From assembly GCA_028700905.1 (NCBI GenBank), contig JAQVRT010000024.1:1-11094 (forward strand): a DNA stretch of 11,094 nucleotides. The letters run 5' to 3'. The position numbers and the translations under genes are program-made. The DNA comes from Candidatus Iainarchaeum sp. GTDB lineage: Archaea > Iainarchaeota > Iainarchaeia > Iainarchaeales > CSSED10-239. Shown piece by piece: positions 2,292 through 8,439 of the stretch; the first letter of the stretch is position 1, and every line of letters starts with the position of its first letter. Below the pieces are notes generated by a model. That model was not told the origin of the DNA. It did not search any database and saw only the letters and a program-made list of their open reading frames with translations.

Positions 2292-2386
2292 TTTGTGTGT
2301 TTTTATTAATCATAATGTTTTTATATCTGTTGCTATAATAATATATAGTAGAGAATAGTAGAGGTAACTAAAGTTTAAGTATTTTT

Positions 2387-2408
2387 AGCTATTATTTAAT
2401 AGCTTTTT
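2387..2408 (+). promoter_or_regulatory. Hairpin of two 8-nt perfect inverted-repeat arms (AGCTATTA-tt-TAATAGCT) followed by a T5 run; terminator-like or operator-like element in the pop5-psmA gap
   Basis: Read directly: 2387-2394 agctatta, 2397-2404 taatagct, T run 2404-2408. A third copy of AGCTATT at 2432-2438 can pair with the 3' arm instead (see findings). Confidence 0.4.
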
Positions 2409-2442
2409 AATTAATATTTTATCTTAAAAAAAGCTATTTTTG

Positions 2443-2450
2443 TTTATAAT
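2443..2450 (+). promoter_or_regulatory. Candidate TATA box (TTTATAAT) upstream of psmA
   Basis: TATA-like octamer about 32 nt upstream of the psmA ATG. Other TATA-like strings (2319-2326, 2333-2346) also exist in this AT-rich gap, so the assignment is ambiguous. Confidence 0.25.
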
Positions 2451-2469
2451 TATAATTAAAGGAAAAAAA

Positions 2470-2474
2470 GGTGA
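2470..2474 (+). promoter_or_regulatory. Shine-Dalgarno-like GGTGA for psmA
   Basis: GGTGA lies 7 nt upstream of ATG 2482. It is complementary to the conserved GAUCACC part of the 16S rRNA 3' end. The same GTGA core recurs 4-9 nt upstream of most starts in the window. Confidence 0.6.
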
Positions 2475-2481
2475 ATAAAAT

Positions 2482-3204
2482 ATGTTTCCAATTTCTAATA
2501 ATAATGCAATGGCACAAGCATATGATAGATCAATAACAGTTTTTAGTCCTGAAGGACATTTATACCAAGTTGATTATGCATCTAAAATAATTGAAAAAGG
2601 AAGTCCAGCTGTAGCTGTAACTTACAAAGAAGGAATTGTTTTAGTTGCTGATAAAAAAATATTTTCATCACTTGTAATTCCATCTTCTGTTGAAAAAGTT
2701 TTTAAAGTCGATAAACACGTATGGGTTGCTTGTTCTGGACTTATTGGAGATGGTAGACGTTTAGTTGATTATTCAAGACAAATGGCTCAAGAGAATAAAG
2801 TTTACTATGATGACCCTATAGAGATAGATACTTTAGTTAAAAAAGTAGGGAATGTAGTTCAATATTTTACACAATATGGAGGAGCAAGACCTTTTGGTGT
2901 TTCTTTAATTGTTGCAGGTATTGATTCTTTAGGAAAACATATTTATGAAATTGAACCAAGTGGAGCAACAACAGCTTATAAAGCTATTGCTATTGGTCAA
3001 AATAAACCTAAATTAATGGCACATTTAGAAAAAAACTATAAAGATAATTTAAATTTTGAAGATGCTTTAAAGCTTGCAATTAAAACTTTGTCTTTAAATC
3101 TTGAAGCAAAACAAAAACTAGATTCAAAGAATATAGAAGTAATACATATTAATGAAAATAACGATTCAATTGTTCCTTTTGAAAAATATTCAAAATTAAT
3201 TTAA
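2482..3204 (+). CDS. psmA: Proteasome subunit alpha
   Basis: YDRSITVFSPEGHLYQVDYA is the hallmark N-terminal alpha-subunit motif (YDR-x-ITVFSP-x-G-x-L-x-QVEYA). Length of 240 aa and operon position fit. Confidence 0.95.
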   Translation: MFPISNNNAMAQAYDRSITVFSPEGHLYQVDYASKIIEKGSPAVAVTYKEGIVLVADKKIFSSLVIPSSVEKVFKVDKHVWVACSGLIGDGRRLVDYSRQMAQENKVYYDDPIEIDTLVKKVGNVVQYFTQYGGARPFGVSLIVAGIDSLGKHIYEIEPSGATTAYKAIAIGQNKPKLMAHLEKNYKDNLNFEDALKLAIKTLSLNLEAKQKLDSKNIEVIHINENNDSIVPFEKYSKLI

Positions 3205-3220
3205 AAGTGTAAAATAAAAT

Positions 3221-3616
3221 ATGCCTAAAACAAATCTTCCTGCATTACAAAAAAATAAATTGTTACAAGATTTAAAAAAATCTCATACAGTTAGTCATTA
3301 TAAGGGATTTGCAACAAAATTTAAAGGAACCACAGATAAAGTTTTAAAGAAGCATATGTTAATTGAAAGAAATTTAGTAAACTATAAAATATTAAGTGTT
3401 AGAGTTTCAAATAAACTAAAAAATTTACCTATTGAAGACAAGAAAAAAGCACTCTCTCTCTTAAACAAGATTTATAATAAATTAAATCTTTTAGAAGAAA
3501 AAAATTGTTGTTTAAAATATTTAGAATTTTCAAAATCTTTTGCAGAAAAGATTAATAGAAAAGAAGGTAGAGAAGTTTTAGAAATATTAACTGAGATTTC
3601 AAAAAAATATATTTAA
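3221..3616 (+). CDS. Hypothetical small basic protein, paralog 1 (131 aa); family not recognised
   Basis: Complete ORF in operon orientation, tightly spaced (16 nt after the psmA stop). It has a paralog immediately downstream. It is Lys-rich with helix-favouring composition, and I recognise no known motif. It ends ...SKKYI. Confidence 0.7.
   Translation: MPKTNLPALQKNKLLQDLKKSHTVSHYKGFATKFKGTTDKVLKKHMLIERNLVNYKILSVRVSNKLKNLPIEDKKKALSLLNKIYNKLNLLEEKNCCLKYLEFSKSFAEKINRKEGREVLEILTEISKKYI
3551..3585 (+). repeat. 35-nt block identical to 3960-3994 (copy 1)
   Basis: attaatagaaaagaaggtagagaagttttagaaat was read at both positions. It encodes INRKEGREVLEI in both paralogs. Confidence 0.9.
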
Positions 3617-3629
3617 AGTGAATTAAAAT

Positions 3630-4043
3630 ATGAAAACAAATAATCCTGCATTGAAAAAAAATCCTTATCTTAAAAATTTAAAAAAAGATCCTTCTATTCA
3701 AGGATATAAAACTTTAGCTGAAATTTTTGTAAAAAATAAATCAAATGCATCTAAATTAAGTAAAAATGTTGTTTTAGATCAAAAATTTCTTGCAAATCAT
3801 AGAATTTTATCTGCAAGAGTAAAACATAAAATTAATGGCCTTTCTAAAGTTGAACAAGAAAAAGCAAAAACTTTGTTTGAAAATATTTTTAGTAAATTTT
3901 TATGGAGTTTTTCAAAAACAGAAAAACATCATGAGTTTATAAAAGAATTTGCAAAATCAATTAATAGAAAAGAAGGTAGAGAAGTTTTAGAAATTTTAGA
4001 AAATGTTAATAAAAAATTAAAAGGTCAAGGAGGATATGATTAA
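3630..4043 (+). CDS. Hypothetical small basic protein, paralog 2 (137 aa); family not recognised
   Basis: Complete ORF with GTGA (3618-3621) 8 nt upstream of the ATG. It aligns with paralog 1 along its full length (roughly one third to 40% identity by eye). It ends ...KGQGGYD. Its last codons contain the GGAGG Shine-Dalgarno of the next gene. Confidence 0.7.
   Translation: MKTNNPALKKNPYLKNLKKDPSIQGYKTLAEIFVKNKSNASKLSKNVVLDQKFLANHRILSARVKHKINGLSKVEQEKAKTLFENIFSKFLWSFSKTEKHHEFIKEFAKSINRKEGREVLEILENVNKKLKGQGGYD
3960..3994 (+). repeat. 35-nt block identical to 3551-3585 (copy 2)
   Basis: Direct reading; see copy 1. Confidence 0.9.
4029..4033 (+). promoter_or_regulatory. Shine-Dalgarno GGAGG for the SBDS gene, embedded in the 3' end of the upstream ORF
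   Basis: aaGGAGGa at 4027-4034, with 12 nt between it and ATG 4046. It encodes the Gly-Gly of the GQGGYD tail. Confidence 0.55.
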
Positions 4044-4045
4044 TT

Positions 4046-4771
4046 ATGTTTTATAAGGGTGAAAAAAATAAAGGTAATCTTGAAAACACTGTAGTTGCAA
4101 GAATTAAAAGAGCAGAACATAATTTTGAAATTTTAGTATATCCTTTCCAAGCATGGGATTTTAGACTTGGAAAATCTGATTTAAAGATTGAAGATGTTTT
4201 AGCTTATGAAGAAGTTTATTCTGATCTTCAAAAATCAAATGTCGCTTCAAGAGAATTACTTTTAGAACATTTTGAAACTGAAGATGTTTTTAAAATAGCC
4301 GAAAAAATTGTTAAAGATGGAGATGTTCAGTTAACAACTGCCCAAAAACAATTAATGATGGAAAAAAGAGAAAAAGAAATAATTAATTATATTTCAAAAT
4401 ATGCTCATGATCCTAAAAATAAAACTCCTATCCCTGAACAAAGAATAGTTAATGCTTTTGAAGAACTTAAAATTAAAATAAATTTAAGTAAACACAAAGA
4501 AAAAGAAATTGAAGAAATTGTAGATAAATTAAAAAGAATTATGCCAATTTCTTTTGAAAAAATAATTTTAATGGTTGAAGTTCCTGCAAATTATGCAGGA
4601 AAAATTTCATCTGTAATCTACAAACAAGAAATTGTAGATCAAAAATGGCTTTCAAGCGGTGCATTAGTTGCAAAAATAAAAATACCTGCAGGTCAAAAAC
4701 AAAATTTAGTTTCTGATCTTAATAACTTAACTCATGGTAATTTAGTTGCAACTGTTGTTGATGAAAATTAA
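4046..4771 (+). CDS. sdo1: SBDS family ribosome maturation protein (Sdo1 homolog)
   Basis: VVARIKRAEHNFEILVYP..., EDVFKIAEKIVKDGDVQLTTAQKQLMMEKREKEIINYISKYAHDPKNKTPIP and LKRIMPISFE follow the archaeal SBDS pattern (N-terminal FYSH domain; central GE-x-QLT-x-x-QR-x-x-x-x-E-x-K-x-x-x-II-x-x-IS-x-x-x-x-DP). 241 aa, at the canonical position before rrp4. Confidence 0.9.
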   Translation: MFYKGEKNKGNLENTVVARIKRAEHNFEILVYPFQAWDFRLGKSDLKIEDVLAYEEVYSDLQKSNVASRELLLEHFETEDVFKIAEKIVKDGDVQLTTAQKQLMMEKREKEIINYISKYAHDPKNKTPIPEQRIVNAFEELKIKINLSKHKEKEIEEIVDKLKRIMPISFEKIILMVEVPANYAGKISSVIYKQEIVDQKWLSSGALVAKIKIPAGQKQNLVSDLNNLTHGNLVATVVDEN

Positions 4772-5413: not shown

Positions 5414-6118
5414 ATGAGTACAAGATTAGATGGTAGAAAAAAAGATGATTTAAGACCAATTAAGATAGAACTTGGAGTTGTAAAAAGTGCTGCAGGTTCA
5501 TGTTATCTTGAATGGGGTAAAAATACAGTTGTTGCAACTGTTCACGGACCAAGACCAATGTTTCCAAAACATTTGTCAAATTCTCAAAGAGCAGTTGTAG
5601 ATTATAGATACAGAATGGCTCCTTTTTCAGTTTCTGATAGAAAATCTCCAGTTCCTGGAAAAAGAGATAAAGAAATTTCTTTAGTTTCAGGTTTTGCTTT
5701 AGAATCTGTTATTATGACTGAAAAATTTCCAAACACAGTTATTGATGTTAATGCATTAATTCTTTCAGCTGATGCAGGTACAAGAGTTGCAGCTTTAACA
5801 GCAGCTTCACTTGCATGTGCAGATGCAGGACTTCCAATGAAAGGGTTAGTTTCAGCTGTTGCAGTTGGAAGAGCAAATGGAGATTTAATTTATGATTTAA
5901 CAAAAGAAGAAGAAGATGCTCCTGATGCAGTTGATACTGCAATTGCAATAACTATGCCTCAAAAAGAAATTGCTCTTTTACAAATGGATGGTTTTGTAAA
6001 TAAAGATGATTGGAAAAAAATGGTTTCTATGGGTTTTTCAGCTGCTGAAAAAGTTTATGAACTTCAAAAGAAAGCTTTACTTGAAAAATACCCTGTAAAT
6101 GGTGATATTAATGAGTGA
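5414..6118 (+). CDS. rrp41: Exosome complex exonuclease Rrp41 (RNase PH-like, catalytic subunit)
   Basis: RLDGRKKDDLRPIKIELGVVKSAAGSCYLEWGKNTVVATVHGPR is the RNase PH domain start. SADAGTRVAALTAASLACADAGLPM corresponds to the ADAG(S/T)R phosphate-binding segment. An acidic EEEDAPDAVD segment lies where the catalytic Asp residues sit. Confidence 0.93.
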   Translation: MSTRLDGRKKDDLRPIKIELGVVKSAAGSCYLEWGKNTVVATVHGPRPMFPKHLSNSQRAVVDYRYRMAPFSVSDRKSPVPGKRDKEISLVSGFALESVIMTEKFPNTVIDVNALILSADAGTRVAALTAASLACADAGLPMKGLVSAVAVGRANGDLIYDLTKEEEDAPDAVDTAIAITMPQKEIALLQMDGFVNKDDWKKMVSMGFSAAEKVYELQKKALLEKYPVNGDINE

Positions 6119-7142: not shown

Positions 7143-7154
7143 AGGTGAAAAATA

Positions 7155-7283
7155 ATGTATTATTGTGCAAGATGTAAAACTGAATATGATGCAATTCCTG
7201 AAAATGATAAATGCGGAGTTTGCGGTTCAAGAATTTTTTATAAGAAAAGAGAACCTGTTTTAAAAAAGATTAAGGCAAATTAA
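7155..7283 (+). CDS. rpoP: DNA-directed RNA polymerase subunit P (Rpo12/Rpb12 homolog), 42 aa; not in the supplied ORF track
   Basis: My translation of 7155..7283 is MYYCARCKTEYDAIPENDKCGVCGSRIFYKKREPVLKKIKAN*. It has a CxxC-x(12)-CxxC zinc ribbon followed by G-x-RI-x-YK-x-R-x-P and a V/I-K-A tail, as in archaeal RpoP. GGTGA at 7144-7148 lies 6 nt upstream. Position between rpl37ae and the Brix gene is canonical. Confidence 0.85.
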   Translation: MYYCARCKTEYDAIPENDKCGVCGSRIFYKKREPVLKKIKAN

Positions 7284-7285
7284 GT

Positions 7286-7759
7286 ATGTTTGTAACAGTT
7301 TCTAGGAAATCAAATCTTTTAGAAAAAAGATTTTCTAAATATCTTACAAGATATCTTCCTGGAATAAATTACTTGCCAAGAGGAAAAACTCCTCTTTTAA
7401 AATTTTTTAAAAAAGCATTATATTTAGGCCATAGATATTTTTTAATAGTTTCTTCTATTAAAGGAAATATCTTACTTTCAGTTTATGCTTTAAGAGAAGA
7501 TAGTTATTTTCTTGAAAGAGAATATTTAATTGAAGTTATTGATTTAAGGCATTTAAAGTCTTTTTCATATATTTCTTCAGTAAACTCTTCTTTTAATGAT
7601 TTAAAAAAAGTATTTTATTTTCTTGAAAAAAAATATCTTTCTTTAAAAAGTAATTTTGGTGTTTTTCAAACATCAGATGAAAATATCTTTAATTTTCTTG
7701 AAAACGAAGAATATTTAGGATTTAAATTTAAAATAGTAAATGTGAGTAATTTTGATTGA
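7286..7759 (+). CDS. Brix-domain (Imp4-like) ribosome biogenesis protein
   Basis: The N-terminal MFVTVSRKSNLLEKRFSKYLTRYLPGINYLPRGK matches the archaeal Brix start (ITTSR-x-P-x-x-R-x-R-x-F-x-x-x-L-x-x-x-P-x-x-x-Y-x-x-RGK). 157 aa, at the canonical position after rpoP. Confidence 0.75.
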   Translation: MFVTVSRKSNLLEKRFSKYLTRYLPGINYLPRGKTPLLKFFKKALYLGHRYFLIVSSIKGNILLSVYALREDSYFLEREYLIEVIDLRHLKSFSYISSVNSSFNDLKKVFYFLEKKYLSLKSNFGVFQTSDENIFNFLENEEYLGFKFKIVNVSNFD

Positions 7760-8000
7760 TCAAGTGCTTTCAATTGTTTTTGAAATAAAAACAAAAAGTC
7801 CAAAGGATTTAAAAGAAATTTTAGATCTTGAAATTGATAGAAAGAAATATGATCGTTCAACTTCTCAAATTATTATTGAAAATAAGAAATTAATTATTAA
7901 GATTTATGCAAAAGACATTATTGCTTTTAAAGCAACAATTAATAATTACATAAATCTTTTAGAGTTAATTTCTAAAGTTTATGAGGTGGATTTAAAATGA
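7752..8000 (+). CDS. pcc1: KEOPS complex subunit Pcc1 family protein
   Basis: About 80 aa. The C-terminal half, LIIKIYAKDIIAFKATINNYINLLELISKV, fits the Pcc1/CTAG pattern (L-x-I-x-x-x-A-x-D-x-x-A-L/F-R/K-A-x-x-N-S/N-Y-L-R/N-L/W-L). It appears to start at TTG 7752, with GTGA (7742-7745) 6 nt upstream. An in-frame GTG at 7764 is an alternative. It overlaps the Brix stop by 8 nt. Confidence 0.7.
   Translation: MIDQVLSIVFEIKTKSPKDLKEILDLEIDRKKYDRSTSQIIIENKKLIIKIYAKDIIAFKATINNYINLLELISKVYEVDLK
7983..7988 (+). promoter_or_regulatory. Shine-Dalgarno GAGGTG for pfdB, inside the pcc1 3' end
   Basis: GAGGTG lies 8 nt upstream of ATG 7997. pcc1 and pfdB overlap as ATGA. Confidence 0.6.
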
Positions 8001-8344: not shown

Positions 8345-8375
8345 ATTAAATTTTAAGCAATTTAACTTTTTTTTT
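8335..8375 (+). terminator. Hairpin (11-bp stem, 6-nt loop) plus T9 run ending the superoperon
   Basis: aattgcttaaa (8335-8345) pairs perfectly with tttaagcaatt (8352-8362). The stem includes the pfdB stop codon. A T run at 8367-8375 follows, and archaeal termination uses oligo-T tracts. Confidence 0.6.
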
Positions 8376-8389
8376 AATAAAAATAGTTT

Positions 8390-8421
8390 AAAAGGTTTTT
8401 TTTTAAAAAAACCTTTTTTTT
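8390..8421. terminator. Palindromic AAAAGG-T9/A7-CCTTTT element between convergent transcription units (possible bidirectional terminator)
   Basis: The sequence reads AAAAGG T9 A7 CC T8. GG 8394-8395 pairs with CC 8412-8413, with A/T pairs on both sides. T runs follow the hairpin on both strands. A further T10 run lies at 8428-8437. Confidence 0.45.
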
Positions 8422-8439
8422 AATCAATTTTTTTTTTAA

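Follow-up and report, generated by a model that had tools for sequence, protein, structure and literature searches.

Few gene arrays in Archaea are as well conserved as the exosome/proteasome superoperon, and it was from the company its genes keep that the archaeal exosome was predicted. The array was reportedly described by Koonin, Wolf and Aravind in 2001, the mth68x array of M. thermautotrophicus being an example. In its canonical form psmA, which encodes the proteasome alpha subunit, is followed directly by the SBDS gene, an arrangement that other archaea share. In the published example mth685/SBDS lies in the superoperon (PMC2695463). Here we analyse a stretch of 11,094 nt (GC about 25%; hereafter the window) on contig JAQVRT010000024.1 of the DPANN archaeon Candidatus Iainarchaeum sp., in which two small paralogous open reading frames, ORF A and ORF B, stand between psmA and SBDS.

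The window retains the superoperon. Its + strand carries, in order, ArgRS, a 206-aa (amino acid) ORF at the Rpp30 position, Pop5, a spacer of 190 nt, PsmA, ORF A, ORF B and SBDS, and then Rrp4, Rrp41, Rrp42, L37Ae, RpoP, Brix, Pcc1 and PfdB. From the Rpp30-like ORF to PfdB both the gene order and the packing, with co-oriented genes that closely adjoin or overlap, are those of the known array, and psmA, SBDS, Rrp4/41/42, L37Ae, RpoP, Brix, Pcc1 and PfdB are all present in one orientation. The difference lies at a single junction: whereas the canonical array passes directly from psmA to SBDS, 841 nt and two ORFs separate the two genes in the window, and related Iainarchaeota have one to three orphan genes at the same place. 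The superoperon itself is known; what is new is a hypervariable accessory slot, specific to the clade, and the orphan family that occupies it. The features of the junction are as follows (SD, Shine-Dalgarno).

2482..3204, + strand: psmA, proteasome alpha subunit (Pfam PF00227, Proteasome, E 4.6e-53; PF10584, Proteasome_A_N, E 6.3e-12)
3206..3210, + strand: SD-like AGTGT, 10 nt upstream of the ORF A start codon, ATG (read from sequence)
3221..3616, + strand: ORF A, 131 aa, A-type, a derived tandem paralogue of the orphan junction family (ORF call, BLASTP)
3617..3621, + strand: SD-like AGTGA, 8 nt upstream of the ORF B start codon, ATG (read from sequence)
3630..4043, + strand: ORF B, 137 aa, grouping with the single-copy form (ORF call, BLASTP)
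4026..4040, + strand: non-conserved five-codon tail of ORF B, QGGYD (window compared to the sequence of locus L003)
4046..4771, + strand: SBDS/Sdo1 homologue (all three domains by Pfam: SBDS_N 5.5e-18, SBDS_domain_II 1e-13, SBDS_C 9.7e-7)

An initial annotation, made by reading the window, took A and B to be homologous, co-oriented and selected genes, each with its own translation signal, and in this it was right. BLASTP aligns the two proteins at 43% identity over 130 residues (E 6e-26). No rival ORF of at least 50 aa overlaps either of them on either strand, and their GC and GC3 are the same as those of the neighbouring genes. Gaps of 16 nt (psmA to A) and 13 nt (A to B) are as first described; the gap between B and SBDS, which had been placed in the same range, is only 2 nt. 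Orthologues were taken from the L001 and L004 assemblies and from L003, L012 and L014, all three of which are Ca. Forterrea multitransposorum (Iainarchaeota, DPANN; complete genome CP045477.1) with 95.7% nucleotide identity to the window (99% identity for psmA). Orthologues with as little as about 35% identity preserve the reading frame; for ORF A, identity is 92% in L003, 70% in L001 and about 42% in L004. The ratio of non-synonymous to synonymous substitution (dN/dS, calculated by the Nei-Gojobori method) is about 0.30 for A and 0.47-0.56 for B, compared to 0.02-0.12 for PsmA, SBDS, Rrp4 and Rrp41 in the same comparisons. This means that A and B are under purifying selection, but selection that is 5-10 times looser than that on the genes around them; the argument that both copies are retained by selection therefore holds, although the constraint is far weaker than on their neighbours. 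Together these data show A and B to be, as judged from substitution pattern and maintenance of frame, genuine protein-coding genes.

Each gene is preceded by its own SD-like site, and a GTGA-type motif at like spacing also precedes psmA, Rrp4, Rrp41, L37Ae, RpoP and Pcc1. It is almost certain that A and B are translated together with PsmA, SBDS and the subunits of the exosome. On the + strand as a whole, (A/G)GTGA recurs 8-12 nt before the starts of most genes (for example at 2470-2474, 3206-3210, 3617-3621 and 7144-7148), and the longer forms, GGAGG or GAGGTGG, are found only before SBDS and PfdB. The narrow gap between B and SBDS is accounted for by a single codon. Where L003 (8795-8815) reads GGT TAA GGA GGA TAT GAG TAA, the window reads GGT CAA GGA GGA TAT GAT TAA; the TAA of Ca. 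Forterrea is thus CAA in the window, so that ORF B reads through the SD sequence of SBDS (GGAGG, 4029-4033) and leaves 2 nt to the SBDS gene. Close strains between them show three ORF B C-termini: KKLKG*, KKLRQGGYD and KKLKGQGGYD.

The distribution of the family is narrow and its position is fixed. A word-indexed search recovered close relatives only, while an exhaustive HMMER search with the family profile (E up to 1e-3) yielded 11 clusters among 1.84 billion representative proteins. Genomic context was read for every cluster bar P0014, a 65-aa fragment, and in all of these the family gene lies between psmA and SBDS, with psmA as upstream and SBDS as downstream neighbour at every family locus read. 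The survey of related AT-rich DPANN genomes that the initial annotation had proposed thus returned a uniform answer: homologues adjoin psmA at every locus with visible flanks. Members, with the G1 and G2 junction ORFs described below included, have in common two sequence motifs (given below), a length of about 120-145 aa and the psmA-SBDS location, as established from alignments, HMM matches and hhalign with a shuffle control. Within the proteins searched, these results show the family to be confined to Forterrea-like Iainarchaeota (DPANN). An identical protein at NCBI carries the label hypothetical protein and the organism name 'Candidatus ainarchaeum sp.', and the nearest genome with a name is that of Ca. 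Forterrea, a close relative; the family has no Pfam model and is otherwise labelled only 'hypothetical protein', bar one 'phage terminase small subunit'. This last label, attached in IMG to P0021, a truncated 103-aa copy of ORF B, is apparently spurious and could propagate.

Most lineages have a single copy. One gene is present at L006/7, L008, L009, L010/11, L013/L028 and L034/35; the tandem pair, which is not general, is found in the window lineage, L001, L003 and L004. In a neighbour-joining tree the A-type copies form a clade of their own and the B-type copies group with the single-copy genes, which identifies A as the derived duplicate. The topology, as reconstructed here, shows that an ancestral single B-like gene duplicated to give rise to the A type in the window lineage. 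Origin by duplication of a neighbouring gene was rejected: when the family HMM was compared to all ORFs of the first 30 loci, it matched junction genes only.

More distant loci were fetched with the window SBDS as query, their own SBDS proteins being 56-72% identical to it. The junctions at these loci hold other small basic ORFs that HMMER does not link to A and B. A single ORF is of type G1 (124 aa), G2 (134-146 aa) or G3 (160-163 aa); where there are several, they are arranged as G4+G3 (L026) or as G2+G4+G3 (L031-L033). In L027/L029, the most distant lineage sampled, psmA and SBDS are direct neighbours with 20 nt between the ORFs, so the junction that the initial annotation described as standard does exist among these relatives. 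Slot content ranges from 0 to 3 genes by lineage, and the psmA-SBDS spacing measured by tblastn grows with it: an empty slot spans roughly 31 nt, a slot with a single gene 400-610 nt, one with a pair 840-970 nt and one with three genes about 1,400 nt. Because psmA and SBDS adjoin directly in other archaea, gain of the family within a subclade of Iainarchaeota is the parsimonious account.

Alignment of the A/B family with G1+G2 by hhalign gave a score of 33.5 over 100 colinear columns; the control, 100 column shuffles, gave 11.2 +/- 2.1 with a maximum of 19.6. At the level of profiles, G1 and G2 are demonstrably homologous to A and B. For G3 and G4 the scores against A/B are just marginally above those of shuffles, and the common features are a C-terminal 'D.K(I/V/L).(E/D)YL' element and the overall architecture; G3 and G4 are best described as positional analogues and possible distant paralogues of A and B. 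The G3 proteins (L026 2055-2978; L032 4581-5928) have a conserved N-terminus, MPGPKP..RPK.RL, a conserved C-terminus, YLRERRIILEH.N, and a Gly-rich insert, and match no known family. At L031 (3543-4580) the gene caller reported no psmA, yet tblastn shows the gene to be intact (3679-4401); the distance from psmA to SBDS is 155 nt longer there than in the near-identical L032 (3698-4580).

The first description of A and B as Lys-rich and all-helical is borne out, with lysine making up 19-20% of residues and both AlphaFold models consisting of helices. For ORF A, AlphaFold2 with an 18-sequence alignment predicts six helices (13-19, 22-33, 40-65, 71-89, 96-111 and 117-130) after an unstructured first dozen residues (pLDDT 87, pTM 0.80); the first model of ORF B, made with six sequences, is likewise all-helical (pLDDT 74). 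The helix pattern persists across the family. A and B have a pI of 9.9-10.0 and net charges of +16 and +17, and all 24 members have a net charge of +13 to +23 and a pI of 9.8-10.3, although the groups are less than 20% identical to one another; of the other operon products, only the RNA-binding L37Ae and Pop5 show a comparable charge density. Two motifs persist, a stripe on helix 3, N..IL..R(V/I)..K...L, and a near-invariant turn, INRKEG.EV (91% column identity), which reads I(N/D)(R/K)(K/R)EG.(E/V)V with G1 and G2 included. The N-terminal tail, with the consensus P-A-L-K-K-N-P..K..KK, is predicted to be disordered and is conserved as much as the helices.

That A and B show no motif of a known family had been noted from the outset, and this withstood every search: neither profile nor fold comparison gave a recurring match. 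Pfam, searched with 14 members at E up to 5, returned only sub-threshold noise in which no family recurs; NCBIfam, PHROGs and PADLOC, searched with A, B and distant relatives, gave scattered noise, and PDB sequences, searched by single sequence and by profile (phmmer/hmmsearch), noise only. With Foldseek, neither model matched a PDB entry below E = 1 (best E 1.6 for the better model), and the better model had a best E of 1.4 against BFVD. TM-scores do not exceed 0.48, and the top matches are generic helical bundles and designed proteins.

Comparison to particular protein classes leads to the same conclusion. A and B resemble the small basic ribosomal proteins in size (about 130 aa), in a pI of about 10, in the basic disordered N-terminal tail and in sharing an operon with L37Ae and maturation factors, but they are without a sequence or fold match, evolve much faster and are absent from L027/L029. 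A ribosomal protein or known biogenesis factor was rejected, there being no Pfam or NCBIfam match and no match to a solved ribosome or pre-ribosome chain. Rpp21/Rpr2 is likewise small and basic with long N-terminal helices, and A and B lie near other RNase P protein genes; however, they have no zinc ribbon, no conserved Cys, no PF04032 match (14 members, E up to 5) and no Foldseek match to PDB Rpp21 chains. Rpp29 fares no better, with neither a Pfam match in 14 members nor a fold match. With the activators and chaperones that use an HbYX motif (PAN, Cdc48, PbaA/PbaB, Blm10) the A-type proteins share a penultimate Tyr and a gene adjoining psmA, but Lys occupies their hydrophobic position, the Tyr falls in a predicted helix, the motif is not family-wide and there is no AAA+ or PAC2 domain. 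A docking tail of the HbYX or bacterial GQYL-like kind was rejected in view of the same non-conserved motif and helical Tyr, and of the origin of the 'GQGGYD' of B by read-through. The PAC2 fold is alpha/beta; the A/B family is all-alpha and has no profile or fold match to PAC2/PbaA/PbaB chaperones. A phage terminase small subunit was dismissed on the lack of a PHROG match (E up to 1) and of a BFVD neighbour and on the cellular operon context, and a toxin-antitoxin or defence cassette on the paralogy of the two genes, their single-copy state in relatives and PADLOC matches that amount to noise.

What the proteins do is a question on which we take a tentative position. The reading we favour, while giving it less than even weight, is that A and B are RNA- or ribonucleoprotein (RNP)-binding accessories of the ribosome-maturation/RNA-processing part of the module. 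The high charge of all 24 members, the conserved disordered basic tail and the company of operon partners that act on RNA (SBDS, Brix, L37Ae, the Rrp subunits and the RNase P subunits) point to RNA binding. Each using its own GTGA SD sequence, A and B would be translated from one polycistronic mRNA together with PsmA, SBDS and the subunits of the exosome, and their products would bind a polyanion, either RNA or RNP. Where there are two copies the products would probably pair as an A-B heterodimer, and a lone copy would probably form a homodimer; the helical domain may dock on a partner, leaving the basic N-terminal tail to touch RNA much as the extensions of ribosomal proteins do.

Several observations weigh against an RNA-binding role. 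Lysine richness is partly the default of an A-rich coding strand of 21% GC, dN/dS is 5-10 times that of the neighbours, and the absence of the gene from L027/L029 means that the family is dispensable for the core machines. The conserved N56, R63, K67, R113, E115 and E118 (B numbering) could form internal salt bridges and not a binding surface. Moreover, since every member is flanked by both psmA and SBDS, position cannot tell a link to one from a link to the other; the connection to proteasome, exosome or ribosome maturation, which the initial annotation drew from guilt by association, is a putative one, drawn from position. A broader formulation is possible, if doubtful: that this is an orphan family, perhaps born within the clade, that a core archaeal machine (pre-50S/SBDS pathway, exosome, RNase P or 20S proteasome) recruited as a new subunit or cofactor evolving rapidly along with it, the junction being a 'nursery' slot of 0-3 copies.

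The same variability could signify very little. A near-neutral hitchhiker, an orphan ORF possibly arisen de novo from AT-rich spacer, could duplicate and decay where a highly expressed operon offers a permissive slot, and have no specific role in the neighbouring complexes. A copy number of 0 to 3, a dN/dS of 0.3-0.56 against 0.02-0.12 in the neighbours, a C-terminus that differs between strains, the failure of the exhaustive profile search of 1.84 billion proteins to find a homologue outside the clade, and a composition near that encoded by A-rich DNA are all in keeping with such an element. We nevertheless think it unlikely: dN/dS is still clearly below 1, the fold is predicted with confidence, lysine content is 20% compared to an estimated 13% or so from base composition, and ORF length, helix pattern and the INRKEG.EV and N..IL..RV..K...L motifs persist where SBDS is only about 70% identical. 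If the genes do serve a machine, it could be the proteasome: the product would dock on the alpha ring of PsmA, either to chaperone assembly or to regulate the gate, and would be made in step with PsmA from the next cistron. The gene is directly 3' of psmA at every locus, and the two probably open one transcription unit. All A-type copies end KKY[IM], and the window B ends GQGGYD, their penultimate Tyr recalling HbYX motifs. Yet the residue before the Tyr is Lys and not hydrophobic, the Tyr is part of the predicted terminal helix (117-130) and not of a flexible tail, B-type, single-copy and G-type members lack the motif, and the 'GYD' tail of the window B is a recent stop-codon read-through; with no match to PAC2/Pba or any other proteasome-regulator family, and with SBDS adjoining the gene just as much as psmA does, a proteasome accessory seems quite improbable.

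Two further explanations are less probable still. The family might be a known archaeal protein, relocated to the operon and diverged beyond recognition, such as a ribosomal protein, a biogenesis factor or an Rpp21 that has lost its zinc ribbon; the lineage evolves fast (its 'Rpp30' has no Pfam match, and Pop5 and Brix are sub-threshold) and A and B lie two genes downstream of Rpp30 and Pop5. Against this, none of the 14 members matches Rpr2, Rpp29 or a ribosomal protein at E up to 5, no Cys is conserved, the confident model has no match among PDB chains of archaeal RNase P, ribosomes or biogenesis factors and the profile search of PDB sequences gave noise only, and we judge it very unlikely. 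The idea of a mobile, viral or toxin-antitoxin remnant inserted in the operon, which two small adjacent genes and one automated IMG name (terminase) might suggest, is close to refuted: the genes are mutually paralogous and single-copy in most relatives, match no PHROG terminase and nothing in PADLOC, have no flanking repeats or integrase, and combine native GC3 with a position that is fixed across diverged lineages.

The rest of the array largely conforms to the gene order first assigned to it. PsmA, SBDS, Rrp4, L37Ae, Pcc1 and PfdB were identified by Pfam and NCBIfam, and Rrp41, Rrp42 and RpoP through precomputed Pfam matches of orthologues. Support for Brix is weak. In the window Pop5 (1974-2291) falls short of the Pfam threshold (E 3.9e-4), while its L031 orthologue matches PF01900, and the ORF at the Rpp30 position (1360-1980), with no Pfam or NCBIfam match at E up to 1, owes its label to position only. 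The RNase P protein labels in this lineage are therefore mostly positional. Two further features complete the list.

2292..2481, + strand: AT-rich spacer of 190 nt before psmA, the sole long gap in the array (sequence)
7155..7283, + strand: RpoP ORF (read directly from sequence)

The spacer is probably an internal promoter, in which case a transcription unit would start with psmA, A, B and SBDS and continue into the downstream genes. The window gave no Rfam or tRNA match that would indicate a hidden RNA element. Stop and start regions overlap at Rpp30-like/Pop5 (1974-1980), Rrp41/Rrp42 (6099-6118), Brix/Pcc1 (7752-7759) and Pcc1/PfdB (7997-8000), and these overlaps indicate translational coupling across much of the array. 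The start codon of Pcc1 is apparently TTG. Truncation of ArgRS at the start of the window is an edge effect, residues 119-568 being intact in frame 3. In Ca. Forterrea multitransposorum a gene for a 147-aa GNAT acetyltransferase lies between PfdB and a DUF1699-like gene (L003 13149-13596); it is missing from the window (8370-8437) and from L004, and is the sole break in otherwise 94-96% identical DNA.

The importance of the family is limited by its narrow clade and by relaxed selection; its interest lies in strict slot-locking, in the dynamics of 0-3 copies and in the fact that the proposals are testable. A family that is locked to one slot, specific to one clade and expanding is a rare natural change to a conserved module. 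If A and B are hitchhikers, then even the superoperon tolerates gene birth at one specific junction. If, alternatively, the product binds one of the machines encoded by the array, it would constitute a new accessory factor of minimal-genome organisms, and the junction would offer a tractable case of orphan genes attaching to ancient complexes.

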